Source: a virus
Lineage: Duplodnaviria > Caudoviricetes
IMG/VR virus record: IMGVR_UViG_3300021387_000648
Coordinates: 64,001-128,000 of that record
Direction: 5' to 3' (one strand)
DNA: 64,000 nucleotides
Position 1 is the stretch's first letter, and every line of letters starts with the position of its first letter. The notes beneath the pieces were generated by a model. The model was given only the letters and a program-made list of their open reading frames with translations. It was not told where the DNA came from and did no database searches. A program made the position numbers and the translations under genes. Shown here one piece after another: positions 17,872 to 50,084 of this stretch.

Positions 17872-18570
17872 ATGATTGACAAAAGAGCGATCCGAAGGTA
17901 TCATAAACGGGTAGATTCGAGACTTGCAGCGAGAGGCAAACGGTTCGACGGGAACCGGTGGGAAGAAGACAAACACCCGAGAGCGAAGGACGGAAAGTTC
18001 GCCTCCGGGAACGGCGGACCATCAAAACAGAGCGAGAGCAAGCCAGCGGCGAATGCGGCAGGCTCGGCAAAGGCGGTTGCAAAATCGAGGATCGAGCTTG
18101 ACGGACCGTCTGGAAGCAAGGGCTTTGCTGACAAGTACATGGCGTCGCATCCCGATGTCGCAAAGGAGGCCTCGAAATACAGGGGCGTCCTGAACAAGGT
18201 AAAAACCTTCAAGGCGGACGAGGACGGAACCTTCAGCGCAACAACCGGAGAAAGGCTTGACCTGACCGAAGGGTTCTGCGTTACCTTCCACCAAAACCTG
18301 AAGATCGGCGACGAGTACGGCGCTTATGATGACGACACGTATTCCAAGATGTGTGCCATTACGAAGCACGAACTCAAGTCCAGCGATGTCTACATCGGCT
18401 ATTACGGGAATCCGGAAGTTTCGTTCAATTGCCCGGATGAGAAAACGGCGATGGACTTTGCGATCAAGCATAACCAGAAGTCGATTTACAACTGCAAGAC
18501 CGGAAAGACCATTCTGAATAAGCACTACAATCCGGAGACAAATCCGATAGAGGGCGATAACGATGGCTAA
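17872..18570 (+). CDS. putative virion cargo protein with Arg-rich leader
   Basis: AIRRYHKRVDSRLAARGKRFDG leader, then WEEDKHPRAKDGKF motif. Confidence 0.7.
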   Translation: MIDKRAIRRYHKRVDSRLAARGKRFDGNRWEEDKHPRAKDGKFASGNGGPSKQSESKPAANAAGSAKAVAKSRIELDGPSGSKGFADKYMASHPDVAKEASKYRGVLNKVKTFKADEDGTFSATTGERLDLTEGFCVTFHQNLKIGDEYGAYDDDTYSKMCAITKHELKSSDVYIGYYGNPEVSFNCPDEKTAMDFAIKHNQKSIYNCKTGKTILNKHYNPETNPIEGDNDG

Positions 18571-18862
18571 GATCGATATTGGAAAACTGAATGAATCCGT
18601 TTCATCCTTTGTGGAAAACCCGCATTGGAAGAAGTATCTGGAAGAAGCTCCGTCCGGCGAGTGCAAGGCGTACATCAAACTGAACTTCTATCTCAGTGAC
18701 ATCGAATCAGACGGCCCGGAGAAAGACGCGGTGATCGACAAGATGAACGCCTACGAGGACAAGCTTGGCCTTGCAGACTGGAAGCACCTGCTGAAATACG
18801 CAGGGAACAATCCCTTCGCCGGTAAGTGCAAGAAGCGGATTGCAGAGCTCTCGGAACAATAA
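18563..18862 (+). CDS. hypothetical protein (possible partner/immunity)
   Basis: Coupled downstream of the cargo gene. Confidence 0.6.
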   Translation: MAKIDIGKLNESVSSFVENPHWKKYLEEAPSGECKAYIKLNFYLSDIESDGPEKDAVIDKMNAYEDKLGLADWKHLLKYAGNNPFAGKCKKRIAELSEQ

Positions 18863-18912
18863 ACGATACGGGTTGGTAAACCCCGGTATGAAAAACCGAA
18901 AGCTTCCAATAT

Positions 18913-18988
18913 TGCGGCGTGGTAGCAGTGGTAGCTCGCTGCCCTCATAAGGCAGAGGTCGTTGGTCCAAATCCAACCGCCGCAACCA
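18913..18988 (+). tRNA. tRNA-Met(CAT)
   Basis: CTGCC-CTCATAA-GGCAG, ACCA end. Confidence 0.88.
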
Positions 18989-18993
18989 TAAGG

Positions 18994-19130
18994 TCGGGCA
19001 GCTCCCGAATGATCTCAGTAGCTTGTCGGTGTGCCTGAGAGAGAATAACAAAGGCCTTTCTGAAAACTCCTTGCGCGTGAACGGTCGTGCGCAGGCTGGG
19101 GCGCGAGTGAGATAATCTAAGAAAGGAAAC
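18994..19130 (+). ncRNA. candidate structured RNA (motif repeated at 20880; possibly skipping-rope-like)
   Basis: TCGGG-CAGCT-CCCGA ATGAT CTCAG...CTGAG AGAGAATA. Confidence 0.45.
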
Positions 19131-19140
19131 CGCACAATAC

Positions 19141-19217
19141 AGCCCTGTGGTGCAGTTGGTGAACACGTCGGCCTGTCACGCCGAAGATCGCGGGTTCAAG
19201 TCCCGTCAGGGTTGCCA
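19141..19217 (+). tRNA. tRNA-Asp(GTC)
   Basis: TCGGC-CTGTCAC-GCCGA, GCCA end. Confidence 0.92.
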
Positions 19218-19525
19218 ATACGTCTCATCTGAGCGTGGCACAACACAGTCTGTTGACGCAAGGACTGTACGGGCGAAATCAGATGCCGGGGCGGGGTTAC
19301 ATCCCACGGAGCGTCACCGTGCTCGCAAAAAACGGACTCGGTATGTCCCAAGTCATCGTGAGAGTATACACCTTGGATGGCACAAAGCGTTTAGAAGTGC
19401 CCGATCAGCCTTCTGCGCGTATCCCGGACGGTCCGGGACCAAGGACTGTGAAGAGCGTGTTCGATTCCGCGAACTCGAAGGTTCGACTCCTGACAGTGCT
19501 GGTGCAATATCAGTCCTTTTTATAC

Positions 19526-19614: not shown

Positions 19615-19617
19615 GAT

Positions 19618-19707: not shown

Positions 19708-19710
19708 GAT

Positions 19711-19800: not shown

Positions 19801-19803
19801 CAA

Positions 19804-23202: not shown

Positions 23203-24336
23203 GTGGATGACATTGTAAAGAAATACCGCATGCGCCGAGATGCAAGGATTGCGGCCAAAAAAGCCCACGCGGACGACCAGTGGATCACAATGCGAGGAAC
23301 GCATGTCCTGATAGACGGCGGCGGACAGGTATCAAAGGGACCTGAAAAGCTGAAAAACGTTGTGAAGCAGGGCGGCGGGTACAAGTCAAAAGCTGACCGG
23401 AAGTACGGAAGCAGCGACAAATACAGCAAGGCGATGAATAACGGCTGGAATGTGAAACCAGCCGTGGAACAGCCAAAAAGAGAACGAAGACCGCTTGCAG
23501 ACATACACAAAGAGTTTGAAGACAACAGGTACCGTCTGGAAGACTCTTTGAAGAAACGCGACAAGGCCAAAGAAAACTATGAGATGAGCAAGGGCAATTA
23601 CGATTTGTACATGGATGATCCGGGAACGTCTGAAGAGTTCAAAGAGATGTTCCGGAAAGACCTTGCCATGACTCAGAAAAAATATCAGGAAGCAAAGAGC
23701 GAAGTAGACCGGCTTTCGGAGAAAGACAGAGCCTTGAAAAAAGAACTGTCTGAAGAGCGCGACGCGGTCAAGAAAGAAGACCAAGCGGCAATCAGGTCCG
23801 GTCCTGTGGCATACGTCAGGTCTGAAAAAGTCGTTACGGCGATTCGTGGCAACGAGAGCTTGATCAGAAAGAAAGATTACGAAAAAGGAGCTTGCGTGGA
23901 CAAAAACGGCAGGCTCTTGTTTGAGGCAACTGACGGCAAAGCGAGTCAGATCGACCTTGAAGCGTATAAGGACAAACTGAAAGACTCCGTGTTCACACAT
24001 AACCATCCCCGGGGTTCAACACTCAGCGTGGATGACGTCAGCTGTGCCGTCGCTCATGGAATGGCGGAAGTAAGGGCTTGTCATCGAGGCGGTACATACT
24101 CTCTCGTCAGGCAGTATTCGCTTGATGGCGAAAAGCCTGCAAATTACATGGACTTCGCTTGGGACTATCAGGAAAGCGTCGCAAAGTATGACCGCGAAGT
24201 TATCGATCCGATCTGGAGACGTGGACCGCAGGTACAGGAAACTGCGGACAGGTGCAATAAAATGTACGACGATTACCGCCGTCTGTGGCTGGAACTGAAT
24301 TCGAAGAAATACGGATGGATTTATTCGGAGGAGTAG
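23203..24336 (+). CDS. putative virion cargo: Arg-rich leader + C-terminal JAB/MPN-like (HNHP) domain
   Basis: YRMRRDARI...HADD-QWITMRGTHV; YEKG...FTHNHPRGSTLSVDD. Confidence 0.7.
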   Translation: MDDIVKKYRMRRDARIAAKKAHADDQWITMRGTHVLIDGGGQVSKGPEKLKNVVKQGGGYKSKADRKYGSSDKYSKAMNNGWNVKPAVEQPKRERRPLADIHKEFEDNRYRLEDSLKKRDKAKENYEMSKGNYDLYMDDPGTSEEFKEMFRKDLAMTQKKYQEAKSEVDRLSEKDRALKKELSEERDAVKKEDQAAIRSGPVAYVRSEKVVTAIRGNESLIRKKDYEKGACVDKNGRLLFEATDGKASQIDLEAYKDKLKDSVFTHNHPRGSTLSVDDVSCAVAHGMAEVRACHRGGTYSLVRQYSLDGEKPANYMDFAWDYQESVAKYDREVIDPIWRRGPQVQETADRCNKMYDDYRRLWLELNSKKYGWIYSEE

Positions 24337-25442: not shown

Positions 25443-26645
25443 GTGACAAAGATGGAGAGACATGTAGCAGCCTACAAGAGGCGCAGAGCACAAAGGCTCT
25501 GTGAGCGATACGGAGTCAGATATGACTCGTCGAATTTAGATTCAGGACTTGGCTGGCTGTTTGGTCTTGCCACGGATCTTGGAATCAAGACAAAGGGTAT
25601 GGAGATTCCTGAAATCTTCAAGGCTGTGAATGAGAAGCGTGCCCAGAAAGGGCTTGAACCTGTTGGACACAAGGGAAATGTTTCCGGAAAGAAGGGCTCA
25701 TTCAAGCAGACAAGCCGGAAGGGGCCGGAGGTAAACAAGTCCCTCGTGTCCAATGCAAAGGAGGAAGCCAAAAAGAATATGGCGACCTCCTACAAAACTG
25801 CGAGCGGAGCTAATTTCCCAAAGCCAAAGGCTGGCGCGAAGTTTGACAACAGTGTTATGTCCGGCGTTGAAAAGAGCGCAAAGGAACTCGGAAAAGAAAA
25901 GGAATTTGACGACATCGTGAAGAGCCTGAAACCGACCGATTATGTCTATATGAAAGACCCCGTGACGGGTGATCAGGTTGCTTCCGTTCCTGGCTTGGCT
26001 CAGCGTTTCGATAAGACAATGACCGGGCGGTCAGAAGAGTGCCAGAGGATCTACGACCAGAAAATCAAGAAGGGCGCACAGATCTCGAAAGACATGATTG
26101 ATGCAGTCAACGGAATCGGGTGCCGTCTGTCCGGACTGGAGAACTGCTTCAAGGGCGGCGACTCCACGTCAAGGAAGATTTCTACCAAACGCAGCGAGGC
26201 AGAAGCAAGAGGAAAAGAAACCAAGACGGACGAAGGATACACTGCTGGTTTTGGTGATATCATCCGATTCACGGCCTTGTGTGACCACGATGACATCGCA
26301 GAAACGGTGACAAAGCTGGAAAGCGCTATGCAGAAGAAGGGCTATGAGCTCAACGAAAGAGACAATAAGTGGGTGACCGGAGACGGCAGCTACAAAGGCG
26401 TGCATGTTGAATTCATTTCTCCGACTGGCGAGCGCTTTGAGGTTCAGGTACATTCTACTGTCGCTCTGGCATTCAAAAACAAGGGTCACAGATACTATGA
26501 CAATGCACGCGTAGAAGACGTGAGCACTGCGAAGGGCAAGAAGCGCCACGATGCCGCCATTGAGAAATGCAAGAGCATCTGGAAGACTTGCCCGATCCCC
26601 AAAGGAATTGAGGACCTGAAACCGATCCCAAAAAAGAAACGGTAG
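25443..26645 (+). CDS. putative virion cargo toxin: Arg-rich leader + RelA/SpoT-type alarmone synthetase domain
   Basis: DIIRFT, YKGVH, FEVQVHS motifs; leader YKRRRAQRL...RYDS. Confidence 0.8.
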   Translation: MTKMERHVAAYKRRRAQRLCERYGVRYDSSNLDSGLGWLFGLATDLGIKTKGMEIPEIFKAVNEKRAQKGLEPVGHKGNVSGKKGSFKQTSRKGPEVNKSLVSNAKEEAKKNMATSYKTASGANFPKPKAGAKFDNSVMSGVEKSAKELGKEKEFDDIVKSLKPTDYVYMKDPVTGDQVASVPGLAQRFDKTMTGRSEECQRIYDQKIKKGAQISKDMIDAVNGIGCRLSGLENCFKGGDSTSRKISTKRSEAEARGKETKTDEGYTAGFGDIIRFTALCDHDDIAETVTKLESAMQKKGYELNERDNKWVTGDGSYKGVHVEFISPTGERFEVQVHSTVALAFKNKGHRYYDNARVEDVSTAKGKKRHDAAIEKCKSIWKTCPIPKGIEDLKPIPKKKR

Positions 26646-26659: not shown

Positions 26660-26688
26660 TTGACAATGTACTAAAATTAGTGTATAAT
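26660..26688 (+). promoter_or_regulatory. consensus promoter for the immunity/hydrolase genes, with 16-bp box
   Basis: TTGACA-17-TATAAT; TGTACTAAAATTAGTG in the spacer. Confidence 0.85.
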
Positions 26689-26709
26689 GACCATGGAGGT
26701 GAGCGGGCT

Positions 26710-26958
26710 TTGAGTGTGAGAAAAGAAGTGTTCTATTATCAGGATCGCGATGACGATTCAGGGATTGCTCGTTCGGTTCGTGATGAGACCGGGACTGACT
26801 ATCAGTTCTGGAACTATGAGAAGCACGACTGGGTATCTCCGAAAGATTCGATTGCGATGGACTTCTGCCATGACTACGACAACACGCGCGTGATCAGTGA
26901 GGAGGAGGCAAAAAAGGCAATCGAAGAGGCTGAAAAGGAGATTGAAAGCCGAAAGTAA
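26710..26958 (+). CDS. putative immunity protein for the alarmone synthetase
   Basis: Small acidic protein ending ISEEEAKK, between SAS and SAH. Confidence 0.65.
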   Translation: MSVRKEVFYYQDRDDDSGIARSVRDETGTDYQFWNYEKHDWVSPKDSIAMDFCHDYDNTRVISEEEAKKAIEEAEKEIESRK

Positions 26959-26970
26959 GGGGATGGTAGC

Positions 26971-27390
26971 TTGATTTCGATGGTCTGGCAGGCAGAGGCC
27001 TTTGCAAAGGAAAGGCACTTTGGACAGTTTGACCGCGCCGGAGTTCCGTATATCGAGCATCCGCGTGCGGTTGCGGCGAAGGTGGACACGGATACGGAAA
27101 AGGTTGTCGCGTTCCTGCATGACACGGTGGAGGACACCAACACAACGCTGGACGAGATCCGGAACAAGTTTGGCACTGAGGTCGCGGACGCGGTTGAATG
27201 CCTGACTCACAAAAAGGGTGTTCCGTATATGGAATACGTCAAGGGAATCAAAACGAACGACCTTGCGCGGAGGGTGAAGCTGGCGGACCTGAGCCATAAC
27301 ATGGATCTGAGCCGTCTGCCAAAGGTGACCGATGCAGACCTGAAGCGCGTGGAGAAATACAAGGCTGCTTACGACTTTCTGGTCGAGTAA
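26971..27390 (+). CDS. small alarmone hydrolase (Mesh1/HD family)
   Basis: H.GQ.DRAG.PYIEHP, LHDTVED, VKLADLSHN. Confidence 0.9.
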   Translation: MISMVWQAEAFAKERHFGQFDRAGVPYIEHPRAVAAKVDTDTEKVVAFLHDTVEDTNTTLDEIRNKFGTEVADAVECLTHKKGVPYMEYVKGIKTNDLARRVKLADLSHNMDLSRLPKVTDADLKRVEKYKAAYDFLVE

Positions 27391-27485: not shown

Positions 27486-29201
27486 ATGGAAAAGAGCCGA
27501 GCGAAAGCGATTGCGGACTACCGCAGGAGAAGAATACAACGGCTGAGAGCCAGATTCGACGATGATAACGACGAGAACAATGCCCCGGCACCGGCTGGCG
27601 GGCATGGAAATACAAAACTTCCGTTCGGACTTTGCCGGAGGGAAGGCATCAAGGTAGACCCGACTTGGACCCCGAAGGATGCGTGGAACGCTCTGGAAGG
27701 CAAGGGATACTCTGCCAAGGAAGCATATAAAGAACTGAAGGAAACCGGCAAGGTGGCACCGAAGGCACCGCAGAAGCCTGCGAGGACGCCTGCTGAGATC
27801 AAGAAGATGGGCAAGTCCGTTTCCGACCTGAAGAAGGCTATAAAGAAGCGTGACAAGCTTGAAAAAGAACTGGATACGGCCAACATCGAGATTTCGAGAG
27901 CGATTAACACCAAAGCGAGGTATGAGTCCGCGTCCGAAAAGTACAAGAAGATGGCCGACGAGATGGTCCAAAAGTACGGTTCCGAAGAAAACATTCCGTC
28001 CAAAAGAGAGGGAGAATACGGCTATCCTCCTTTGGCGAGCTATCAACTGTATCGTGACAACGAGAGAAGCTATGCCAAGGACGCCGAGAACATCGGAAAG
28101 ACGATCCCGGACCTGATGCAGAAGCACGAAGACCTTCAGAAACAGTTGGCTGAGTATCCGAGCAAAGAAGATCACAAGAAACAGTATGATCAGGCGGTTG
28201 ACGACCTGCTGTCCAGTTCTCCGTACACCGACAAGGTACGCGACTATAGAACAATCGAGGAAGAGTCTGAGGGCGCGAGGGAGATTCTGGAAAATGCAAA
28301 GAAGAATGTCGAATATGCCCAATCGCATATCGAGTTCTATGAATCGATGGCCCGGAGAGCAAGAGAACGTGGAGACGAGGAAACCGCGAAGTTCTATGAG
28401 GGCAACGGTCTTGCTGCCAACAGAAAGCTTCTCGAAGTCAATCAGGCCAATGTCGACAAGTACTCCAAGCAGGTCGAGGACTATGACAGACGGATGAACG
28501 AGGCAAAGGGCGACGCTGCGGACAAGGACTGGAAGCAGATTTATGAGCTTTCGGTCGAGAAAGACACCGTGCAGGATGGACCATATACCGAGCTTGAAAG
28601 AGCGGCTGAATCTCTGTCAAGGGAAAAGGTCAAATACGTTAATCCGGTCAAGTATATGACTCCGCCGTCAGAGGAGAAGATCATCTTCGACCTGCGCGGC
28701 AGTGACAAGACAAGCGGCTCCTGCGCTTCTCTGGCGTTTGCCTATTTCGTAAACAAGTCCGGATACAGGGTGCTTGACTTCCGTGGCGGAGCATCACGAC
28801 GGTTCTTCTCGTATAACTGCGGTGATGTGATCCGGAGACTTGGCGGAACGGTCACACACGACAGCGACGGCTTCAAAATCGCAAACGACCATCTTTCGCA
28901 GGTGGAAGAGGGCAAGGAGTACTATTTCGCGGCAGGAAAGCATGCTGCGGTTGTCAGAAAGAAAAACGGAAAGCTTGAGTTCCTCGAACTGCAAGACAGA
29001 ACTGGCGGATGGGAAGAGCTCAATGACTCCGTTCTCAAACAGCGGTTCAAGGTCAAAAGGACCAGCCGTCGCGGCAGTGAGTATTCGTATCTGATCAGCG
29101 GAGACAAGCTGACCGGAAACAAAGAGCTTATTTCCCTGACGGGATATATCAATACGGCATCGGACAAGCAGAAGAAAGGCGCTGGGGGTGGTATCAAGTG
29201 A
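27486..29201 (+). CDS. putative virion cargo toxin: Arg-rich leader + HGNT domain + papain-fold C-terminus
   Basis: GSCASLAFAY (Cys), GKHAAV (His), LELQ. Confidence 0.7.
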   Translation: MEKSRAKAIADYRRRRIQRLRARFDDDNDENNAPAPAGGHGNTKLPFGLCRREGIKVDPTWTPKDAWNALEGKGYSAKEAYKELKETGKVAPKAPQKPARTPAEIKKMGKSVSDLKKAIKKRDKLEKELDTANIEISRAINTKARYESASEKYKKMADEMVQKYGSEENIPSKREGEYGYPPLASYQLYRDNERSYAKDAENIGKTIPDLMQKHEDLQKQLAEYPSKEDHKKQYDQAVDDLLSSSPYTDKVRDYRTIEEESEGAREILENAKKNVEYAQSHIEFYESMARRARERGDEETAKFYEGNGLAANRKLLEVNQANVDKYSKQVEDYDRRMNEAKGDAADKDWKQIYELSVEKDTVQDGPYTELERAAESLSREKVKYVNPVKYMTPPSEEKIIFDLRGSDKTSGSCASLAFAYFVNKSGYRVLDFRGGASRRFFSYNCGDVIRRLGGTVTHDSDGFKIANDHLSQVEEGKEYYFAAGKHAAVVRKKNGKLEFLELQDRTGGWEELNDSVLKQRFKVKRTSRRGSEYSYLISGDKLTGNKELISLTGYINTASDKQKKGAGGGIK

Positions 29202-29479
29202 AGCGGATCTATAAGGAGAACAAGGACGACAAGGTTTGGTGGCTGGACAATGAGAAAGCGATTGGAGAATTCGCCTTTACGCTTGACAAGAAAACGTTCT
29301 ACAATCTGTTCGCGGACTATCCGGACAAACTGTCCGTGCAGGACTGGATCACGTTCAATGAGGAGAATGAGTATTGGGTGAAGTTCTTCAAAGAGAGGAA
29401 CGAGGACTATGTGATGAAGCACGCCGAAGAGCTTGAGAAGCTTGGGCGTGAAGACCTGATCAGGGCAATCATGAGCTGA
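29198..29479 (+). CDS. putative immunity protein (DUF7675-like)
   Basis: DKVWWLDN...YNLFADYP...ENEYW..FF; coupled to the toxin gene. Confidence 0.6.
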   Translation: MKRIYKENKDDKVWWLDNEKAIGEFAFTLDKKTFYNLFADYPDKLSVQDWITFNEENEYWVKFFKERNEDYVMKHAEELEKLGREDLIRAIMS

Positions 29480-37118: not shown

Positions 37119-37481
37119 ATGAAGCTGATAGGAAAACTGGATGGTCTTCCACTCTTTGAGATTGAGGAAGGAAAGTATATCGCCGTCAATCCGGACACGG
37201 AAACCTGCAAGGTCTTGTGGAGCTGGCTTGCGGTGCTTGGCAGATGGTACGACACCTTCGAGAAGTGCGAAGAGTGCGAAGATGAAGTGGCGTGCCTGCA
37301 TCTGATCGAGCAGAACAAGGAAGAGCTTGCGGAGCATCTGACCACCATTGGGAAAGAGAAAGAGTCGGACGACTTCCCAGAGTGGATGGAAAAGCAGCAG
37401 GAGTTTTATGACTGGCTGGACAGCAACCGGGAGTATGACTTCACGGAAGGCTACGTGGACGAGGAAGAGGACGAAGATTGA
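37119..37481 (+). CDS. acidic hypothetical protein (possible immunity)
   Basis: Follows the toxin-like gene and has its own promoter. Confidence 0.65.
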   Translation: MKLIGKLDGLPLFEIEEGKYIAVNPDTETCKVLWSWLAVLGRWYDTFEKCEECEDEVACLHLIEQNKEELAEHLTTIGKEKESDDFPEWMEKQQEFYDWLDSNREYDFTEGYVDEEEDED

Positions 37482-37604: not shown

Positions 37605-37726
37605 GGTGCAAAAGGAACCGACACCACCAAAGAAAACAATAGGACCCGGTAACGTTCTTGGCGTTACCGGGCTTTTTCTCTTTATGCGCAGAAGGGCGCT
37701 GCCCTTCCGGAAAGGAGGGCGCAACG

Positions 37727-40139: not shown

Positions 40140-40961
40140 ATGCTGAGCAAACAAGGCGAGCGGCAGCTTGATGAGATGGCCGCGATATCTGAAGAGCTTG
40201 GCGCTATCGTTCCGAACAACGGCTGGACGCCTTATGCGAGGAAGATCCTGCTGAGGCTCCAAGAACTGAGTATCAGTCTTTTTGGACAGTCCGAGGTCCG
40301 AGAGGATGCAAGCATCGGCGAGATTCTTGCGGCAAAGAAGAATTCGGCCCTGCCGGATGACCTGACAGAACAGGAAAAAGCGCAGGGCTATTACTTCCGG
40401 ACCGTCAACGGAAACAGCATCAAGTTCAGTTCCGAAACAGGACTCCCGGTGGACGGACAGCCGAAAGCGTTTGGCGCACAAGACCTGCAAGAGATGGTCG
40501 ACAACGCTCTGGCAAGTATTGAGGCCAAGCGGGAAGGCAAAGAGCCGGAAGAGCCGGAACATAGAGACAGATACAGCAGCCCGTATCCGATGGAGCAGAT
40601 TTCCGCCGAGGGCGAAAACTTCCCGTGCATAGGGTTTACGGAGAACAACCTTCGCGTTCACAAGGAGCAAAGGCACCCCGAGCAGTATGCGAACATGACA
40701 GCCGAGGAGTATAACGAGCACGCAAAGAAACTTCTGATGAAGAAGTGCGGTCCGGATATCTGGGGCTATCGCTGTTCGGACGGGAGCATCTGCCGGTTCA
40801 ACAGACTCACCGGCGAGTATGCAAAAGGATATCCCGGAGGGAATATCAAAACGTGTTTCTATCCGACACGGCTGAATGCGGCGGACCCGACAGACATAGA
40901 TTTGGATTTTGCGAGGAACTATTTTATGGCGAGGAAGGAAGCGGAACAGTATGATCGATAG
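40140..40961 (+). CDS. putative RNase-type polymorphic toxin
   Basis: L..H...RH..QY..MT.EEY...A..LL...IKTCFYP pattern; upstream of a CPCC gene. Confidence 0.55.
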   Translation: MLSKQGERQLDEMAAISEELGAIVPNNGWTPYARKILLRLQELSISLFGQSEVREDASIGEILAAKKNSALPDDLTEQEKAQGYYFRTVNGNSIKFSSETGLPVDGQPKAFGAQDLQEMVDNALASIEAKREGKEPEEPEHRDRYSSPYPMEQISAEGENFPCIGFTENNLRVHKEQRHPEQYANMTAEEYNEHAKKLLMKKCGPDIWGYRCSDGSICRFNRLTGEYAKGYPGGNIKTCFYPTRLNAADPTDIDLDFARNYFMARKEAEQYDR

Positions 40962-41300: not shown

Positions 41301-42083
41301 ATGACTGATGCTGTAGCTGAATACAGAAAGCGGAGACAGCAGAGGCTTGATGCACGCTTTCACCGCGATGCCCCCGAAGAGGAGGCAAACGGAAACAATA
41401 ACACGCCGGTCAAAAGAACCGGTGGACACGGAAACACGCGCCTGCCGTTCGGCCTGTGCCAACGGTACGGTATTGACGTGGACAGTTCGTGGAGTCCGAG
41501 AGATGCATGGGATGCTCTGGCGGAGAAGGGCATAACGCCTGAGGCGGAGTTTGCCAAGCGAAACGGCGGAGCGAGCTTTATCAGGACCAGAAGCGGCGCA
41601 ACATACAAAAACCTGAGCGCGACCAAAGTAAATGACGGCAAGTACACCCTGAGAGGCGACTTCACAGACCGCACATTGAGCGGAAGGCCGATCACGGCCA
41701 CTGCTGCCGCGTTCCACACGTTCCTGAATAAGGAGGAAATGTACGCTTGCCTTCAGGAGCACGGAATCAGCCGGTTTAAGGACCCGGATACCGGGGAGAC
41801 GGTGAACCCGAGCAAGATGAAGCTGCCGAAGACGGTTGCCAAGGTCGGGGAAACGCGGTACAAGGATCTTGTACTTGGCACGCGGTACAACAAGACCGGA
41901 CACCCTTACAGCAGGCGTGGATTTACAGTCACAGGCACCGACTTCACCGGGCACCGTACAACCTTGAAGATCTTCGAGAAGATTTCCGATGCAAAAGCCT
42001 ACGCTGCGAAAATCGGCTGCAAGGAATCTGACCTGAGGACGTCTCCGGATCTCAAAAAGTACGCAACGCCGAAGATCGGCTGA
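41301..42083 (+). CDS. Arg-rich leader + HGNT domain protein; short paralog of 33364
   Basis: DPDTGETVNP...TGTDFTG matches DPETGELVNP...TGTDFMG. Confidence 0.75.
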   Translation: MTDAVAEYRKRRQQRLDARFHRDAPEEEANGNNNTPVKRTGGHGNTRLPFGLCQRYGIDVDSSWSPRDAWDALAEKGITPEAEFAKRNGGASFIRTRSGATYKNLSATKVNDGKYTLRGDFTDRTLSGRPITATAAAFHTFLNKEEMYACLQEHGISRFKDPDTGETVNPSKMKLPKTVAKVGETRYKDLVLGTRYNKTGHPYSRRGFTVTGTDFTGHRTTLKIFEKISDAKAYAAKIGCKESDLRTSPDLKKYATPKIG

Positions 42084-42103: not shown

Positions 42104-43045
42104 ATGGACGAGAAGCCCGTAAGGGGTATAGATGTACTCCGAAGAAAAAGAGTTCGAAACGGACAGATAAGAGAGCACGGCGAAATTTCACCAAGGCGGA
42201 GACCGACCTATCCGATCTCCGCCGAGCGTGAATGCATGCGCGGCACTCTGGCCTATACAGAGATGGTGATTCAGACGGTGCAGCCCGCGATCAACAGCGT
42301 GATGCGGCAGTACGTGGAGCGCGGCGAGGTACGGCAGGACGCGACCGGAGAGTTTATTTCAACCGCGAGAGGACTTCGCTTGGCGGCGGCTGAAAGGCTG
42401 GACCGTAAAAAAGGCGCTCTGGCAAAGCTTGAAAGGCAGTATGCCAGAAGCGGAAGCCTTGCCAAAAACCACTCGATCGAAGACTGGAATGATCAGGTCC
42501 GTGATGCCCTTGGCTTTGAGATCAACGTCAAGAGCTATCAAGAGGATATGGAAAGCATGGTCCAGCGCTGGATTCACGAAAACGTGAGCAAGATCCAGTC
42601 GATTCCGAACGAGTACCTTGCCGAGGTCGAGTCGATTATCCGGTGGGGCTACGAAACCAAACAGCCGAAGGTCAACGTCTACCGGAGACTGGAAAAACTG
42701 ATCGGCCTGACAAAGTCCAAAGCAATGATGATTGCAAGGGACCAGTTGGGAACACTCAATTGCCAGATGACGAGATACGAGCACGAAAGCGCTGGCGTCG
42801 GCAAGTATAAGTGGATCACCAAGCGTGACAGTCGAGTAAGAGACAGCCACAGGGCCTTGCATGGAACGGTCCACAAGTGGAGCGAGCCGCCTGCCGAGTG
42901 GTACATGACGAAATCAAGAGGGATTGTGTACACTGGAAGATACTGCCACCCGGGCGAAAGCTACGGCTGTCGCTGCGTAGCGTCGCCGGTATTTGATATA
43001 GACATTGCAAAACGCTATCTGGCGAACAAGTTTAAGCCTTTGTAG
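42104..43045 (+). CDS. minor head protein (MuF / SPP1 gp7 family), short form with no toxin
   Basis: IARDQ, W.TKRDSRVRDSH..LHG, HPGE.YGCRCVA. Confidence 0.9.
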   Translation: MDEKPVRGIDVLRRKRVRNGQIREHGEISPRRRPTYPISAERECMRGTLAYTEMVIQTVQPAINSVMRQYVERGEVRQDATGEFISTARGLRLAAAERLDRKKGALAKLERQYARSGSLAKNHSIEDWNDQVRDALGFEINVKSYQEDMESMVQRWIHENVSKIQSIPNEYLAEVESIIRWGYETKQPKVNVYRRLEKLIGLTKSKAMMIARDQLGTLNCQMTRYEHESAGVGKYKWITKRDSRVRDSHRALHGTVHKWSEPPAEWYMTKSRGIVYTGRYCHPGESYGCRCVASPVFDIDIAKRYLANKFKPL

Positions 43046-43103: not shown

Positions 43104-44726
43104 ATGGACAATTCCGTTAATCGATATAGGAACCGCAGAAAAACGAGAGTTGCCGGAAGACGGAAGGCAAGGCTTGACAGCGTGGAGGCCTACAGACAGC
43201 GCAGAGAGCAGAGGCTTCAGGAACGCTTTGACGCGAGTGCGCGTCTGGCCTACGGAATTGCAAAGAGCATGGGAATCAAGACCGAGGGCATGGAGCCCAA
43301 AGAGGTCTGGGCCGCGATCAAGAAGAAAGATCCCGGCGCTGCTGAGGCGGCTGCAAAAAGCTTCGGCAACAGAGGACCGAAAGGCAATGTGACCGGAAAA
43401 AGCGGTGAGCGCAGCAAGCAGACTTCCCGTGCGAAGTATCAGGGGAACTGGATGCCGCCAAAGGTCAAGGGCCTTGATGCCGCGACGGTGAACAACACGC
43501 TTTCCGGCTGCGACAAGGTCGGCGGACAGCACTATGCCAAGGGCACCAAGGTCGCCAATGAGAAGCCGACGCTGAGAACCTTTACCACGCATGGTATGGA
43601 TCACATCCAGCAGGTGGTCGAGAAGACCAATCAGGCTGCGGACGTGATTGAGCAGCTTCAGGGAAATCACCGTTTTCGCGGTGCCAAGATGGACCGGAAA
43701 CTGATGCTTGTGTCTGCTTGGTTTCATGACACCGGCATGGACGGCGGCGACATCAATTGGAGCAAAGACAACGGAGACGGTATCCGTGGCAATCACGGAA
43801 TGAATTCCGCGATGCATATTCTTGAGCACTCTGCGGAACTTCAAAAGCTTGGCGTTAATCCGAGTCAGGCCGCGTTTATTGCCTTTGCCCACACGAAGAG
43901 TAAATCCGGAGTCAATGACCTGATGAGTCCGGAAGACTGGAAGGTTGGTCTGGACAAGATCGAAACCGCCGTTAACGAGTATAATGAGCGGAACCCGAAT
44001 AAGAAAATCAAGTTTGACCGCGACTCTGTGTTCGGCGGGGAACCGAACGAAGAGAACATCCGCCACATGGCTTCGCAGGTTGCGGCGGTACGTCTTGGAG
44101 ACGCCAACAGAGAAGCCAACATTCCACTTCGGGCCCAGAGCGGCGGTAAGTACGACATCGACAAGATGGCAACGCCGGATCAGTGCGGGTCTTGGCAGGA
44201 TGAGGTCAACAACTCCAAGATCAGCATCAAGGACGACAACGGCGTGCATGACCTGAATGACGACAAGGACGGGTTCATCGGAGAGCTCGGACAGGAGAGC
44301 CGAGACTTTTCCAAAAAGGTTGTTCTTGGTGAGCGGAATATGGTCAAGGTTGACACGGTCCTGCATAACGGCAGTCTTGCTTTGAGCGTGTCGCTCCGAG
44401 GCGGAAACGATGTTCCGCACTGCACGGTGGAGGCGCTTCTGGAACGCTGCGGCGAACTGAATACCATCAACGGTATTCCGAGAAGCATGCAGATCAAGAT
44501 GACCGGAGTCAAGAGCGCGAATGACATGAATCCGAACGCCACGGGAGCCTATGACGACATGTGGAAACGGATTGAGACCGAGGTTGACAAGAAGACCGGA
44601 AAGCCGAAGTACGGCGGCATTGACGCCCTGACGCTTGTTTGCGAAGACGGCACGAAGATTGAGTACAAGAGAGAACCGAACGGCGGAAACAACAGAGAAT
44701 GGAACAACGGAGGGAACAGCAAATGA
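43104..44726 (+). CDS. putative virion cargo: double Arg-rich leader + HD phosphohydrolase domain
   Basis: THGMDH..., WFHDTGM, IRGNHG, AH, RLGD. Confidence 0.72.
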   Translation: MDNSVNRYRNRRKTRVAGRRKARLDSVEAYRQRREQRLQERFDASARLAYGIAKSMGIKTEGMEPKEVWAAIKKKDPGAAEAAAKSFGNRGPKGNVTGKSGERSKQTSRAKYQGNWMPPKVKGLDAATVNNTLSGCDKVGGQHYAKGTKVANEKPTLRTFTTHGMDHIQQVVEKTNQAADVIEQLQGNHRFRGAKMDRKLMLVSAWFHDTGMDGGDINWSKDNGDGIRGNHGMNSAMHILEHSAELQKLGVNPSQAAFIAFAHTKSKSGVNDLMSPEDWKVGLDKIETAVNEYNERNPNKKIKFDRDSVFGGEPNEENIRHMASQVAAVRLGDANREANIPLRAQSGGKYDIDKMATPDQCGSWQDEVNNSKISIKDDNGVHDLNDDKDGFIGELGQESRDFSKKVVLGERNMVKVDTVLHNGSLALSVSLRGGNDVPHCTVEALLERCGELNTINGIPRSMQIKMTGVKSANDMNPNATGAYDDMWKRIETEVDKKTGKPKYGGIDALTLVCEDGTKIEYKREPNGGNNREWNNGGNSK

Positions 44727-45118
44727 AGTATGTCGGCAAGAGCGTGATTCGCGGCGATGTGGTCAGTTACAAGTTTGCGGCTGACGAGATGAAGACGGAA
44801 AAGGACTGCTTCCGGTTCGCGGCTGTGGCCTGCGGCTACGGCGAGCTTGAGATCGTCGAGTGCCGTGGCTACTCGGACATGGACACCCACGAGAACTATT
44901 GCAGCTTCAAAACGCAGAAAGAGTTCGTGGGTGGCCTTGACAAGGTCAAGAAGATCGATGCTGATGTGATTGAAGTCCGCACGAAGGTTGACGGGTCCCG
45001 CGTGACCATCTCGATCACTCCGTGCTGGGATAACGAAGCAGGAAACACGGTTAACGTTTCCGGACCGGAGGAAGCGGTTAAGAAAGTAGCCGCCATGATC
45101 CAGAAGAAAAACGGCTGA
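44723..45118 (+). CDS. hypothetical protein (possible immunity)
   Basis: Coupled to the upstream gene; GGAGGG RBS. Confidence 0.6.
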   Translation: MKYVGKSVIRGDVVSYKFAADEMKTEKDCFRFAAVACGYGELEIVECRGYSDMDTHENYCSFKTQKEFVGGLDKVKKIDADVIEVRTKVDGSRVTISITPCWDNEAGNTVNVSGPEEAVKKVAAMIQKKNG

Positions 45119-45408: not shown

Positions 45409-48400
45409 TTGCATAAGATCGGCTACATCACTGCAGAGCTGAGCCTGCTGTGCCAAGAGTATAAGACCGCTGAGGAGCCGAAGGCGTCCAAGTTGGGCGA
45501 GGAGATCCGGAAACTGGTAGAGTCCCTGACAGAGAGCTTTGATCAGGTTCGTAATGACGGCGTGTTTTTCGCAGGTGACTTGGACGACCATCACCACGAA
45601 TACGAAACCATCTATCCGGGCGATGAGCGCAAAGAGCACGATGACGCAGATTCCAGTGAATATGACTGGGTCACGATCAAAGGTACGCACGTTCCCCTTG
45701 ATGATGAGGGAAACATGACCGGCGAGGTTGCCAAAAAGATCAAGGCTACCTCAAAGGGACCGGCCAAAGCAGGACAGCGCGAACTGAATCTGAGCGACAG
45801 CACAAAGCCTAAGAGAACCGACTATGACTTGGACCCGGCAGACGGGCACCAAGAGTTCATAAGCAAGAATGTGGACAAGCTCATGCCCATCTTTGAAGAG
45901 AAGGGCATGGACGGCGTGAAAGAAGAATGGCTCAAGGCCAGACTTCAAAACGCGACCGGAAACCTCCGACGCATCAGTGATCAGGAAACCGACGAGATCC
46001 TGCAAAACGGCATTGACAAAGGTGTCGCCAGCATGTGGATCACCGAGTATGATCCGGGCGTCAAGGAAAAGCTTGCACATCAGCTGACCAAAAACAGCGA
46101 GATACATAACGCGGCATTGAACGTTATGTATAAGAACTATCAATACCACTGCAAAGCGCAGGGCGAAGAGGATCTGCCGTTTGAAGACTTCCTCGTTACA
46201 CCGGTTAAGATGTATAGAGGCGGAAGCGGCAAGGAGCACAAGAAGGCCCTTGCGTTTTCTTCTTATACGTTTGACAGAGCAGCTGCGGAAAAGTTCAAAG
46301 CCAGCAACGAAGGCCACGGAAGAGCCACTGACGACGGCGTGATTTACGAGGCGGAGATCCGCCCGATTGACACCTTCGGCTCTTTGAACACGAGCGGCGA
46401 GATGGAGATTTTTGTCCCCGGCTTTATTGCACCGAACGGAAGATTCGATGCGGACGAAGAGTCGGAAGGTGATTCCTCATCCAAAAACCACGGCAACACC
46501 AAACTGCCTTATGGCCTGTGCAGGAAGTACGGCATTGAGGTGCAAAACGGCTGGACCCCGAGGGAAGCGTGGGAAGCGCTGGAAGGGAAAGGCGTGAGCG
46601 CTGCTGAGGAATACAAGAAACTCCGCGAGCGTGGGAAAGCAGAACAAAAAACTGTCGTTTCCCCGGAAAGACACACTGCTGCGAAGAAGTCCTGCATAGA
46701 AAAGCAGACTGAAGTAGCCCAGCAGACGAAAGAGCTTAATCGAAAGATCATCGATGCGACGAACCGCCGAATTGATACAGAGTTTGGTCCTTTGTCACGT
46801 GCCAAAAGTGAACTTCTCCAAGCCGAACGCGGTGCCGTTGAAGCGAAAAGGAGAAAAGACCTGATCGCAGGCAGGACCAAAGAAGAGCTTGAATCGGAAG
46901 TGGATGCTCTGTATAAACGTGTTCGCGAGGCCCAAGAGCTTAATGAAAAGCTCTACGACAGGCCGGAACGCGGAACACCGGAACGCGAGGCATGGAACGC
47001 ATGGTGCGAGCAGCACGGCGGCAGAAGCGAGATTATCAAGAAAATCGACACTGAGCTCTTATCCAAGGACGGAGCTCTTGAAAAATACAACGCTCTGAGC
47101 AATATCCTCAATAACGACTACGACCGCTACGGTCCGGACGGCGGATATAAAGAGGCCAGCAGAAAAGTACGGGGCGTCAAGAAAAAGATTGCCGGGTACG
47201 AAAAAGAGGTTCAGGACGCAGAGGCCGAGGTTGAAGAATACAAACGGCAGATTGCGGAAGCGAAAGAAAGTCTGAAGCCTGTCCGGCAGGAATACTACGA
47301 TTCCGTCACGGAAAGATTTCCAACATTCGACGACTGTAAGACGGTCGAAGATATCGCGGAGCGGCTTTCTGCTGAGGGTGCCTTTGACGGGGACGACATC
47401 GTGTGCGACTTTGGACACAAGGTGTCTCTGGATACCGCAAAGGCGACAGCGAAGTCCTTTGTAGACTATATCAATAAGGTGCCTTTCATGAAAGGGCACT
47501 GCGGGCGTCTTGTGATTGAAGACATGACAGCCGAGGACGCAGGCGTCTACGGCTACTCACAGAGAGGCAAGGGCGTCCGCCTGAATAACCGGTTCTACGG
47601 AGACGAGCAGAAGTTTGAAGAGTCTTGGCAGCGGTGCATGACGGACAAGTTCCATCCGCCCGGACTCACAAAGGAAAGTGTTGTCCAGCATGAGTATTCT
47701 CATCAGTTGGACGACTACATGTCAGATGCCTTGAAGCTCCACAGCGGTAATTTTTCCACGCTGGTGATGAACGAGGTTATGTCCAAGCTCGGAATGAGCA
47801 GGGACGAGTGCAAGAGAGCCGTGTCCGGATACTCCGTCAACAACAAAAGCGGCGGTGACGTCGAGTGGTTTGCGGAAGCGATGTCCGAGTATACGGGCAG
47901 CGCGAATCCGAGACCGGTTGCAGTTGCGGTCGGCGAATGCGTTATGAAATACGCCCAGCAACTTCAGACGCAGCGTCATGACGCAGCTGATGACGATGGA
48001 CGGTGGGTAACCACAGAAAACGACCATCATGTGCATATCAATGAGCAGGGAATCCCGGACAAGGGAAATCCTTATGTGCTTTCCACCATGCGCGGCGAAG
48101 GTCCAAACCCGAAAAGCAGGGAAGAGCTTGTGAGGAACCGCCTGCGGAAAAGAAGCAGACAGGTGAAAGCCCTATTCCAGAGCCTTGAAGATGCGGAATG
48201 TGACGAAGAAGCCGCATACGATGAGAGAAACAAGGCGGACAATGCCCTTCGCCGTTTGAATCTCCAAAGGAAGATCGTTGCGAACGACAAGAAGATGCTT
48301 GAAGACCTCGGCTATGGCGAAGGCGATAAAGAGGTCATGGAGAGAGACCTTGAAGAGCTCAAATCCGAAATGGACAGCATTCTTCAAGGCAGGAGCAAGT

Positions 48401-49764
48401 GGAGCCTCCAAGACGAAGAGAAAAAATCATTTACTGAAGTCGAAGCCAAGTACAATAAGCTTGACTTTGCGATCAAGTCTTATGACGAGTGCTACGGTCC
48501 GGATGCGTTCTCTGAGGAAAAGGTGAGTCAGGCGGAGGAACACGCCGCCAAGGCCAGACAGAGGGCCCACGATGCAACCGTGAGACGAGAGAAGGCGCAC
48601 AAGGAAGCACACGCGGTTTCCGGAAAACTGGATCAGGAGCGGTTTCTTACAAGTGATGAGAGGTCATCCGCGATTCAGGAGATCCAGCATTCGTCCACAT
48701 GGGACGGAATGTCCGATGAGGCAAAGGCATCTGCGTTTGAAAGCCTGCAAGGGGCGTCTGATGCGCAGCTGCTTCTGTTGCAAAAGACAGCCGGTCATGT
48801 TAGAATCATGGACGGCGAAGGAAGGGTTTCTCCCTCCGGCGCTGATTCGTTCTATTCCAAAGGAACAGGGACGATCGTGATGTCGGCAGAGGACATGCGG
48901 AAGCCAAGTATCCTGTGGCATGAATACGGTCACTATCTGGATGACCCGGATCAGAGCGACTGCTATTCGCACAAGAAAAGAAACTTGTCCAGCGATACGG
49001 AATACAGGTCGTCTCTGTCGCAGGCCTTGTATGATGGAAGCGCGATGCACAGCAAAGAATCCGCAGCCGATATGAATAAGCTGCTGCGGGAGTCCGGCGT
49101 CGAAGACTACACAATCGAAGAGAGTCCTTACGGGCATTATCTGATTGTGAAGAATTCCGAAGGCGGGATGATAGAAGATGCCTACGACACGGCGTTCTTC
49201 AAGATTGCGTCTGCCGTGGACAGCCAGTTCAACAAGTTCCAGTTCGCTGACAGCGAGTACGACGACTATCTGAGGTCGATCGGCTGTCCGCTTTCCAGCG
49301 AAGAGCCAAAGTATGGCGACTACATAGAGTTCTATTATACGCCGAAGCGGAGGCTTCTCCGGGAACGTGAGAAACACAAGGGCGCAAGAGAAGAGTACAA
49401 TCGTCTGCATCGAGAATACAGAGAGAAGAGAGAAGCCGCGATTGCCAAGAACCCGGACGAGTACTACGACAAAACCCGGGAATACGAGGAGCGGTGCAGG
49501 CAGCGCGAGAAAATGATCGGTCCGGTTTCGGATATCATTTGCGGTATGTTCAACGGACGCGGACCTTGGGTTTGCGGCGGTCACAGTTCGGATTACTATT
49601 CCAGAAGCACGGCACCATACAGCGAGGCGGTAGCCAACTACCACCAGATGCGCATGATGGGCTGGACCGAAGGACTCAATCTCCTGAAGTCTATTGCGCC
49701 GAGTGTCCACAACAGTCTTGAAAAAGCCTATGACGAATGGCTTTGGAGGAATGTAGACCTATGA
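45409..49764 (+). CDS. polyvalent cargo polyprotein: ART-like + zincin + second HExxH module
   Basis: YRG/SSYT/EMEI; QHEYSH...EWFAEA; WHEYGH; internal RFDA and RHDA junctions. Confidence 0.75.
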   Translation: MHKIGYITAELSLLCQEYKTAEEPKASKLGEEIRKLVESLTESFDQVRNDGVFFAGDLDDHHHEYETIYPGDERKEHDDADSSEYDWVTIKGTHVPLDDEGNMTGEVAKKIKATSKGPAKAGQRELNLSDSTKPKRTDYDLDPADGHQEFISKNVDKLMPIFEEKGMDGVKEEWLKARLQNATGNLRRISDQETDEILQNGIDKGVASMWITEYDPGVKEKLAHQLTKNSEIHNAALNVMYKNYQYHCKAQGEEDLPFEDFLVTPVKMYRGGSGKEHKKALAFSSYTFDRAAAEKFKASNEGHGRATDDGVIYEAEIRPIDTFGSLNTSGEMEIFVPGFIAPNGRFDADEESEGDSSSKNHGNTKLPYGLCRKYGIEVQNGWTPREAWEALEGKGVSAAEEYKKLRERGKAEQKTVVSPERHTAAKKSCIEKQTEVAQQTKELNRKIIDATNRRIDTEFGPLSRAKSELLQAERGAVEAKRRKDLIAGRTKEELESEVDALYKRVREAQELNEKLYDRPERGTPEREAWNAWCEQHGGRSEIIKKIDTELLSKDGALEKYNALSNILNNDYDRYGPDGGYKEASRKVRGVKKKIAGYEKEVQDAEAEVEEYKRQIAEAKESLKPVRQEYYDSVTERFPTFDDCKTVEDIAERLSAEGAFDGDDIVCDFGHKVSLDTAKATAKSFVDYINKVPFMKGHCGRLVIEDMTAEDAGVYGYSQRGKGVRLNNRFYGDEQKFEESWQRCMTDKFHPPGLTKESVVQHEYSHQLDDYMSDALKLHSGNFSTLVMNEVMSKLGMSRDECKRAVSGYSVNNKSGGDVEWFAEAMSEYTGSANPRPVAVAVGECVMKYAQQLQTQRHDAADDDGRWVTTENDHHVHINEQGIPDKGNPYVLSTMRGEGPNPKSREELVRNRLRKRSRQVKALFQSLEDAECDEEAAYDERNKADNALRRLNLQRKIVANDKKMLEDLGYGEGDKEVMERDLEELKSEMDSILQGRSKWSLQDEEKKSFTEVEAKYNKLDFAIKSYDECYGPDAFSEEKVSQAEEHAAKARQRAHDATVRREKAHKEAHAVSGKLDQERFLTSDERSSAIQEIQHSSTWDGMSDEAKASAFESLQGASDAQLLLLQKTAGHVRIMDGEGRVSPSGADSFYSKGTGTIVMSAEDMRKPSILWHEYGHYLDDPDQSDCYSHKKRNLSSDTEYRSSLSQALYDGSAMHSKESAADMNKLLRESGVEDYTIEESPYGHYLIVKNSEGGMIEDAYDTAFFKIASAVDSQFNKFQFADSEYDDYLRSIGCPLSSEEPKYGDYIEFYYTPKRRLLREREKHKGAREEYNRLHREYREKREAAIAKNPDEYYDKTREYEERCRQREKMIGPVSDIICGMFNGRGPWVCGGHSSDYYSRSTAPYSEAVANYHQMRMMGWTEGLNLLKSIAPSVHNSLEKAYDEWLWRNVDL

Positions 49765-50084
49765 TGACAGAACAGAACGAACTAATCAAGCTGTTGAATG
49801 ACGGCTTCTTTAACGATGCTGAATTCTTCCAGAAAGCCTACATCGACAAAAAGGGCGTCATGGATATGGACGGCGTCACGAGGCTTTGGGAGTCTTTCCG
49901 TGGCAGAAAGTACACGATGAAGTACTATATGGTCCACGGGAACACGATCCCAACCTGGGGAGTACCAAGCAGGTACAGAGACCCCGACGAAGCAGAAAAG
50001 GTTTACAAAGCCTGCCTTGAAGAAGGCGTAACTTGGCAGGAGAAGCTTAACTACAAGCCTCCGAAGTCAAACGAGGTTTGGTAA
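49761..50084 (+). CDS. hypothetical protein (possible immunity)
   Basis: Coupled to the polyprotein stop. Confidence 0.6.
   Translation: MMTEQNELIKLLNDGFFNDAEFFQKAYIDKKGVMDMDGVTRLWESFRGRKYTMKYYMVHGNTIPTWGVPSRYRDPDEAEKVYKACLEEGVTWQEKLNYKPPKSNEVW

Follow-up and report, generated by a model that had tools for sequence, protein, structure and literature searches.

The window analysed here comprises 64,000 nucleotides (bases 64,001-128,000) of IMGVR_UViG_3300021387_000648, a single contig of 146,458 bp from a large uncultured gut-type tailed phage. It harbors a set of genes whose products begin with the same arginine-rich leader and continue into different C-terminal domains. The leader follows the pattern D[AS][VI]xxY[RK]xRRxxR[LIV]x(3-7)[RH]xD[ASGD] and occurs in ten copies within the first ~50 residues of eight + strand genes (17872/17863, 23203, 25443/25452, 27486, 31733, 33364, 41301 and 43104), with a tandem duplication in two of them (31733 and 43104). 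All genes of the region that holds these genes and the head genes lie on the + strand. The leader genes, here termed cargo genes, a related polyprotein gene and the small genes that follow several of them are as follows.

17872..18570, + strand: cargo 1, with the leader (17881-17955, ending in RFDG), an HPRxxxGKF motif and then a domain without an assigned fold.
18563..18862, + strand: 99-residue gene that overlaps cargo 1 by 8 nt, a candidate partner or immunity gene; no family match.
23203..24336, + strand: cargo 2, with the leader (ending in HADD), the WITMRGTHVLID motif, a coiled coil and, at motif level, a C-terminal HNHPxG..SxxD (JAB/RadC-like).
25443..26645, + strand: cargo 3, with the leader (ending in RYDS) and a small alarmone synthetase domain at residues 192-395.
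26680..27390, + strand: a 92-residue acidic gene (net charge -10) and a 139-residue HD_4 hydrolase (HD_4, 3e-9).
27486..29201, + strand: cargo 4, with the leader (ending in RFDD), an HGNT module, a coiled coil and a C-terminal toxin-like domain at residues 384-568.
29198..29479, + strand: DUF7675 partner gene (PF24723, 2e-22), overlapping cargo 4 by 4 nt.
31733..33292, + strand: cargo 5, with two tandem leaders (ending in HYDS and RLDA), an HGNT module, a coiled coil and a zincin.
33364..37095, + strand: cargo 6, 1243 residues, with the leader, a long basic spacer to RKDA, an HGNT module, repeats and a DUF3626/OspC-like tip.
37119..37481, + strand: 120-residue, very acidic gene (net charge -25) after cargo 6.
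41301..42083, + strand: cargo 7, 260 residues, with the leader helix, a disordered linker, an HGNT module and beta domains; it always adjoins MuF.
43104..44726, + strand: cargo 8, with two tandem leaders (ending in RLDS and RFDA), the GIAKSMGIKTEGMEP module and an HD/phosphodiesterase (PDE)-like body (WFHDTGMD).
44699..45118, + strand: 139-residue gene that overlaps cargo 8 by 28 nt.
45409..49764, + strand: 1451-residue polyprotein, with a helical-hairpin header and three units; two HExxH zincins.
49737..50084, + strand: 115-residue gene that overlaps the polyprotein gene by 28 nt.

A local hidden Markov model (HMM) of the leader, built from nine copies and searched against the six-frame translation of the whole 146,458-bp contig, recovers exactly the eight open reading frames (ORFs; domain E-values 1e-12 to 4e-4, at ORF positions up to 50). 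The leader is found nowhere else in that translation, where the next best match has E = 0.18. Pattern search and HMM thus agree on the eight genes and ten copies that a preliminary description, made from the letters of the window, had located. Six different codons encode the conserved arginines, and where residues are identical the third codon position agrees in only 39%, which indicates that selection acts on the leader peptide and not on a DNA or RNA element; a nucleic acid-level element or recombination box is ruled out on the same grounds. A Tat or Sec signal is likewise ruled out, because no hydrophobic segment follows the Arg-rich stretch.

Each leader copy carries 5-7 Arg/Lys in about 16 residues, and the predicted helix displays a conserved hydrophobic stripe (V/I, Y, L, F). 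AlphaFold2 was applied to the 260-residue g41301 product with 22 homologs (mean predicted local distance difference test (pLDDT) score 77.9). In the resulting model the leader is a lone helix (residues 2-21, pLDDT 63-68), separated by a disordered linker (residues 23-44) from a three-helix HGNT module (residues 48-87, pLDDT about 80) and the beta domains that follow. A Foldseek comparison of this model with the PDB gave no match at E<=0.001.

Behind the [RH]xD[AS] site an acidic linker leads to a short module, which is of one of a few types. The HGNT module (GGHGNTKLPFGLCxxxGIxVxxxWTPxDAW) is present in 27486, 31733, 33364 and 41301 and occurs internally in 45409; the W[VI]TxxGTHV module is found in 23203 and twice in 45409, HPRxxxGKF in 17872, and GIAxxxGIKTxGMEP in 25443 and 43104. 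The C-terminal domains begin beyond these modules. Several enzyme folds had been named for them at the outset, and these calls now differ in standing. The alarmone synthetase of cargo 3 is upheld by profile matches (8vx3 SaSAS, 1.2e-7; XopAD C-terminus, 5.6e-14), as is the zincin of cargo 5 (HEYGH at residue 416 of the 31685 ORF; phrog_7153, zinc protease). The DUF3626-like tip of cargo 6 (language-model Atlas score 0.90, 16/30 matches in DUF3626 clusters; also phrog_8314) and the HD/PDE-like body of cargo 8, g43092 (Atlas score 0.83, to SidE_PDE/HD clusters), are language-model leads, and the papain-like and JAB-like calls are at the level of motifs. None of the eight leader proteins has a Pfam match, and cargo 2 has no match in PHROG either. 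The claim that most cargo genes are coupled to a small gene also holds: at seven of the nine cargo genes a small gene follows, with an overlap of 4-28 nt or a gap of 23-47 nt. The gene after cargo 2 (24384-24659) differs from the other partners, which are acidic or neutral, in being strongly basic (net charge +11) and starting with TTG; it may be a miscall, or may have a role other than immunity.

The variability of these C-termini is evident across the whole family: BLAST clustering of the C-terminal 220 residues of 209 members yields at least 25 clusters. The picture of unrelated, polymorphic C-termini behind a portable leader within a head module is thereby borne out. Pfam matches among them include ADP-ribosyl cyclase, Zeta toxin, ADPrib_exo_Tox, HEPN_RiboL-PSP, M90 and an ATLF-type zincin; otherwise, the C-termini encoded in the window matched nothing in Pfam or NCBIfam. 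Several of the window domains resemble parts of head proteins. The C-terminal part of cargo 3 matches phrog_7625 (head morphogenesis, 2.6e-16), and that of g31685 matches phrog_324 (MuF-type head morphogenesis, 3.8e-12). The products of g17863 (residues 14-99, phrog_15528) and g40140 have matches to a portal family, in its C-terminal extension. Cargo 4 matches phrog_7104 (5.4e-36) and also phrog_4728.

The arrangement of g25443 and its two downstream genes is that of Apk2/Tis1/Aph1, a three-gene layout in which the toxin Apk2 is fused to MuF (PMC10083569). The C-terminal domain of g27486 is paired with DUF7675 in 17 phage records too, 16 of Streptococcus and 1 of Butyrivibrio. Of these, Streptococcus phage IPP67 was examined: its copy of the domain follows a minor head protein N-domain (phrog_2494) in one polypeptide, whose gene comes directly after the portal gene. 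As judged by homology, three of the C-termini, together with their immunity partners, correspond to cassettes found in other phages as fusions to MuF-like minor head proteins. The cassettes of the window are thus of the same kinds as those covalently fused to head-internal proteins elsewhere, here placed behind a different N-terminus.

The leader is not restricted to this phage. When a profile of the leader plus the HGNT module was scored against 1.84 billion representative proteins, it matched 464 unnamed clusters (50% identity) at E<=1e-3, of which 237 reached E<=1e-10; a word-index search returned 422 proteins, all metagenomic, without an informative name and effectively without Pfam annotation. 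Of 235 family sequences fetched and scored with the local leader HMM, 179 contain the leader. It starts within 20 residues of the N-terminus in 163 of these 179 and is present in two copies in 64 (about a third); an internal copy was found in only four of the fetched proteins, all longer than 900 residues. The HGNT module is conserved more strongly than the leader, with N45, P49, G51, P66, L73 and G77 invariant in 104 sequences. Among 24 related loci, 20 have 2-5 leader ORFs, all on the coding strand and placed between the genes for TerL, portal, MuF, DUF2213 and major capsid protein (MCP). As the original description had expected, the family co-occurs with DUF2213/capsid head modules, and its C-termini vary. 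A tblastn search with g41301 against 50,697 GenBank phage records gave no match.

More distant lineages that share the head module have different basic helices at this place, with the same terminal motif. In L003, nine paralogs immediately upstream of MuF have ARxRMIxRxLxLDA[DE]. In L096 the sequence RIRxSLxxRR[FM]D[GA] is followed by GGPGSGNWGHxGRPGxxGGS or WITLKSNGEHVPL, and in L035 EIRRRHxAIxxxIxR[FI]D[AS] precedes WITVKGTHIPL. The leader itself is retained before at least four different adaptors. To gauge chance occurrence, 80 related loci were scanned for ORFs of at least 150 residues that combine an N-terminal basic stretch with R-φ-D-[ASG]: 30 of 1117 ORFs on the coding strand have this combination, against 0 of 1174 on the opposite strand. 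In L096 (1289-9400) and L035 (4638-8600) the R-φ-D site is directly followed by GGPGSGNWGHxGRPGxxGGS or WITxKxxGxHxPL. Together with HPRxxxGxF, these short motifs look like widespread neo-N-terminal tags.

The end of the leader links it to the head proteins, whose genes in the window are these.

30301-31707, + strand: TerL.
37658..40075, + strand: portal protein with a C-terminal NUDIX domain (Phage_portal_3, 2.3e-72; NUDIX, 5.9e-14).
42104..43045, + strand: stand-alone MuF minor head protein, 313 residues, without a toxin domain (Phage_Mu_F, 1.7e-16; phrog_324, 4.7e-46).
50203..51774, + strand: DUF2213 scaffold and putative prohead protease (PF09979, 3.2e-32; phrog_530, head maturation protease, 8.6e-72; 9b40_G, 9e-13).
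51795-52283, + strand: cement protein.
52313..53350, + strand: MCP (PF09950, 1.7e-53), with RFDS at residues 33-36 (52409-52420).

A junction logo was made over 194 family members; the Asp, the downstream acidic run and the upstream basic stretch were imposed on it, and positions P3, P2 and P1' were left free. It reads R (80%) or H (8%) at P3, F/M/L (68%) at P2, then D, then A (52%) or D (29%) at P1' and an acidic run. The MCP contains the same motif as [RH]-F-D-[SG] at residues 33-36 in 123/123 homologs (R in 109 and H in 13; F in 122; D in 123; S in 114). DUF2213 bears R-x-D-S near its N-terminus (residues 8-11, RYDS in the window), with R8 at 98%, D10 at 98% and S11 at 92%, and L in 59% at position 9. 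Further sites lie downstream in the same protein: x-x-D-A (xADA) at 195-198, with D at 100%, T-D-A-D at 225-228, and R-[LM]-D-G (RMDG) at 456-459, with D and G at 100%. R-φ-D-[ASG] is therefore common to the leaders, the MCP, the N-terminus and C-terminal region of DUF2213 and the polyprotein junctions. The N-terminal R-x-D-S is also present in the DUF2213 of Faecalibacterium phage FP_Brigit, which lacks cargo genes. This is the nearest cultured phage by capsid protein (53% identity); the closest DUF2213 homolog is labelled as deriving from a Clostridium sp. metagenome-assembled genome.

DUF2213 has two further features of note. Its N-domain has invariant H74, S124 and H154, and the protein is a homolog (9b40_G, 9e-13) of gp24 of phage Pa193, a putative scaffolding protein (PMC11456595). 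It also contains a poly-acidic tract at about residues 200-400 (window 50800-51400), where net charge falls to -27 per 40 residues; the whole protein has 133 Asp+Glu in 523 residues. The tract peaks at -34 in L003, with its nine leader paralogs, and at -11 in FP_Brigit, without leader cargo. A comparison of 55 related loci that include 8 kb or more of upstream sequence showed stronger tracts where more cargo genes were detected (Spearman 0.46, p = 4.5e-4, uncorrected for kinship); since the loci are mutually related, the correlation is a hint and not a test. Two apparent exceptions, L096 and L084, carry cargo with leader variants that the HMMs missed.

The polyprotein shows how the same elements are combined within one chain. 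HDDA (77), RFDA (345) and RHDA (856) join the three units of g45409; behind every joint come an acidic linker and either a WVT or an HGNT module. Zincin motifs (HEYGH/HEYSH) occur both here and in g31685. There is no Arg-rich helix in g45409. Its homologs P0107 and P0093 have a full Arg-rich leader (..DAVEAYKARRQKRLDAKSDDEEGRWVTTEN..) at the junction of units 2 and 3, which the window protein has lost; the leader is thus a junction element as well as an N-terminal one. In its place at the N-terminus, g45409 has a second header, unrelated to the leader, that consists of a helical hairpin (..ELSLLCxEYK..KLxExIQKLVExL.., 45409-45690) of ~50-80 residues, about 70 in g45409. The same header is found in P0178, P0180, P0186 and P0202. 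It, too, has xDAD and an acidic linker at its end, with an HGNT or WVT module behind. In relatives the header precedes HGNT too, and the Arg-rich helix sometimes stands between header and module. Neither this header nor the adaptor motifs behind the leader figured in the preliminary description. A weak match (40140-40340) is encoded by the following gene.

40140..40961, + strand: 273-residue protein with a weak match to the helical-hairpin header; its C-terminus resembles the portal C-terminal extension (phrog_15528, 2.3e-18).

The header likeness of g40140 (alignment A6, 22% identity) is a lead only.

These observations are best compared with phage T4. There, the capsid-targeting sequence (CTS) of the internal proteins IPI-III and of Alt is removed by the prohead protease gp21 at L/I-x-E sites, and the gp21 motif lies near the N-terminus of the protease, in the capsid and scaffold proteins and at the ends of the cargo propeptides (PMC9026906). 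The leader resembles the CTS in being a short N-terminal propeptide on unrelated proteins, in ending with a motif that also occurs in capsid, scaffold and protease, and in preceding cargo that differs between related phages; the T4 parallel drawn earlier has in this respect gained support from the capsid and scaffold/protease proteins. By this analogy the leader would work like a CTS and is not a CTS homolog. The sequences are unrelated, and a ~20-residue Arg-rich helix with an acidic linker, often duplicated, contrasts with the 10-residue T4 CTS. Moreover, the motif is R-φ-D-small rather than L/I-x-E, the enzyme would be a putative DUF2213 scaffold-fusion protease rather than the S77 gp21, and the cargo consists of predicted toxin cassettes with partner genes.

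On balance, we lean towards the leader being a loading and processing signal for virion cargo of the T4 CTS kind. The signal would consist of the ~20-residue Arg-rich amphipathic helix ending in R-φ-D-[A/S/G] and the disordered acidic linker behind it. The helix would dock the cargo onto the assembling scaffolding core, where the poly-acidic tract in the DUF2213 scaffold/protease (100-170 residues) would be its likeliest partner. A cut at R-φ-D, in the leaders as in MCP, scaffold and polyprotein junctions, may then be made by the putative N-terminal protease domain of DUF2213 and so free the cargo within the head. The new N-terminus would be the acidic linker plus a short adaptor module (HGNT three-helix, W[VI]TxxGxHV or HPRxxxGKF), followed by the exchangeable toxin-like enzyme. 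Cargo packed in this way would stay inside the head until it leaves and is delivered together with the DNA, and the small gene downstream of most cargo genes would protect the producing cell. We infer packaging, the docking partner, cleavage, injection, toxicity and immunity, and they differ in how probable they are. The leader proteins are probably virion cargo, and a role of the leader in loading or in processing is reasonably likely. The chances that DUF2213 makes the cut at the R-φ-D site are about even, and the acidic tract can be proposed as docking partner only tentatively. A broader and speculative proposal is that the DUF2213/E217-type head clade uses a programmable capsid-loading code, in which electrostatic attraction to the acidic tract would recruit any protein that bears a basic amphipathic helix with R-φ-D-small at its end, to be cut free inside the head and injected. 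A phage might in this manner carry ten or more toxin-like enzymes, each with its own partner and exchanged with the MuF- and portal-fused pools, although we regard such a code as doubtful.

Several points weigh against this interpretation. The protease nature of DUF2213 is putative and derives from a PHROG label and the invariant His/Ser/His; no Pfam cross-hit to protease families was obtained, even at E<=10, and the AlphaFold2 model of the N-domain (pLDDT 40-60) is of too low confidence to be compared by fold. Conservation of the capsid RFDS could reflect a structural constraint. The acidic-tract correlation has an exception in L106 and is confounded by phylogeny, and FP_Brigit has no leader genes though its head module is present. 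Finally, the presence of the leader inside a few polyproteins means that a free N-terminus is not needed, so that 'address tag' may be the wrong emphasis. The preliminary description had presented the leader as an N-terminal address tag; the portable N-terminal module stands, its strict confinement to the N-terminus does not, and its role may lie in junctions or processing no less than in addressing. A predicted complex of DUF2213 residues 1-310 with MuF and residues 1-95 of g41301 (ipSAE 0.15 and 0.00, against a mark of 0.32) was counted neither way.

The head structure of Pa193 offers a further point of comparison. Its capsid N-arm is modelled from residue 66, and ~16-residue helical densities under the capsid hexons are unassigned (PMC11456595). 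Such densities, or the start of the N-arm, could relate to leader helices or to N-terminal processing. A PDB profile search from the window capsid protein did not reach the capsid proteins of Pa193/E217.

The internal leaders also raise the question of whether the leader directs packaging at all. It may be only a processing or junction element, with the adaptors (HGNT, WVT, HPR..GKF) directing packaging through the stand-alone MuF in trans or through the portal, and with cutting possibly done by the cargo zincins, as proposed for polyvalent proteins. The stronger conservation of HGNT relative to the leader is in keeping with such a division of roles, as is the position of the HGNT-bearing g41301 family, always directly upstream of MuF; leaders at unit junctions and the zincin domains in g31685 and, twice, in g45409 fit as well, the zincin being the proposed processing hub of polyvalent proteins (PMC5512222). 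We nevertheless consider this explanation rather unlikely. R-φ-D-small is present in the MCP and DUF2213 of phages without nearby cargo or zincin genes (FP_Brigit, L050), which points to a universal head protease rather than a cargo zincin, and the leader persists before at least four different adaptors. Because the separate MuF always adjoins the most conserved HGNT protein and adaptors could bind it, the epithet 'MuF-independent', which formed part of the initial proposal, is not established.

Two other explanations dispense with the cut or with the virion. The leader might stay in the mature protein and its Arg-rich helix bind the packaged DNA, so that cargo is condensed and exits with the genome. 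A density of 5-7 basic residues in about 16 and the tandem copies in about a third of the family would suit such a role, and the MuF homolog gp7 of SPP1 binds DNA (as summarised in PMC10083569). Yet every leader is directly followed by an acidic linker, the conserved hydrophobic stripe is commoner in protein-protein docking, and the terminal motif is common to head proteins that do not bind DNA; we hold DNA binding to be improbable. No more probable is that the proteins are non-virion late toxins or takeover enzymes, active inside the infected cell or set free by its lysis, the leader serving in regulation, oligomerisation or autoinhibition. The role of MuF-fused toxins is itself still open (PMC10083569), and immunity-like partners are also typical of interbacterial toxins. 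However, throughout the clade the genes lie within the head module and share its strand, and in other phages the domains are fused to minor head proteins or portal C-termini. The motif shared with MCP and scaffold, and the lack of a signal peptide or hydrophobic segment after the Arg-rich stretch, also speak against a non-virion role.

Like the MuF polymorphic toxins of temperate phages (Jamet et al., 2017, PMC5576092; PMC10083569), the cargo proteins have variable, toxin-like C-termini, small immunity-like genes and a location beside portal and head genes, and at least three C-terminal cassettes are homologous to those on MuF-like minor head proteins. In contrast to MuF toxins, 0/8 of the proteins have a MuF (PF04233) domain. 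MuF is a separate gene without toxin, as had been noted from the start: a plain 313-residue Phage_Mu_F protein with no extra domain. In addition, there are eight to ten such proteins per genome rather than one, in a 146-kb phage with a tRNA array. The repertoire (RelA/SpoT, zincin metallopeptidase, ADP-ribosyltransferase (ART)-like and RadC/JAB-like domains), the location near virion genes and the predicted delivery with DNA are shared with polyvalent proteins (Iyer et al., 2017, PMC5512222). By a multi-domain test for polyvalent proteins, g45409 has three units and two HExxH motifs, and most leader genes have a single effector domain. The 1451-residue protein is a true multi-unit polyvalent example, with zincin hub and head-gene location, whereas here a unit usually has a gene and a leader to itself. 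The Arg-rich leader, the R-φ-D junction and the HGNT module are not described in PMC5512222, in the text of which 'arginine-rich' and 'linker' are absent. In giant phages (phiKZ; the SPN3US gp245 protease), propeptide-bearing ejection or inner-body proteins are reported to be likewise head-internal, cut by the prohead protease at a shared motif and ejected into the host (PMC10052503, PMC7411985). These phages belong to another lineage with a cleavage motif after Glu, and the abstracts of these papers describe no shared portable leader before toxin/immunity cassettes.

If the loading and processing signal is real, the T4 capsid-targeting principle would extend to an unrelated and very common group of gut/rumen-type phages. 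It would also bear on whether and how MuF-type toxins travel in the virion, since the same toxin/immunity cassettes are found on a second, independent carrier. Neither the leader nor the HGNT module of the 464-cluster family is named in Pfam or PHROG, and a short portable leader with a defined end motif is potentially useful for loading proteins into phage heads.

The portal gene (37658-40075) extends the range of arrangements. Its NUDIX is a cargo domain fused to the portal, behind a low-complexity linker of ~150 residues, and this architecture is kept in relatives (L002, 799 residues). Portals of other clade members are 1025-1181 residues long, which suggests that there, too, cargo is fused directly to the portal.

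Other genes are scattered among the cargo and packaging genes, namely ThyX, two ParB-like genes, a GNAT gene and a Cys_rich_CPCC protein gene (24762-25418, 21742-23188, 40909-41220). At least 14 tRNA genes lie within the window. Twelve of them form an array (18913-21607) between cargo 1 and the ParB-like genes, where the ORFs listed are probably not genes, and two tRNA-Leu genes lie upstream, at 12325-12489.

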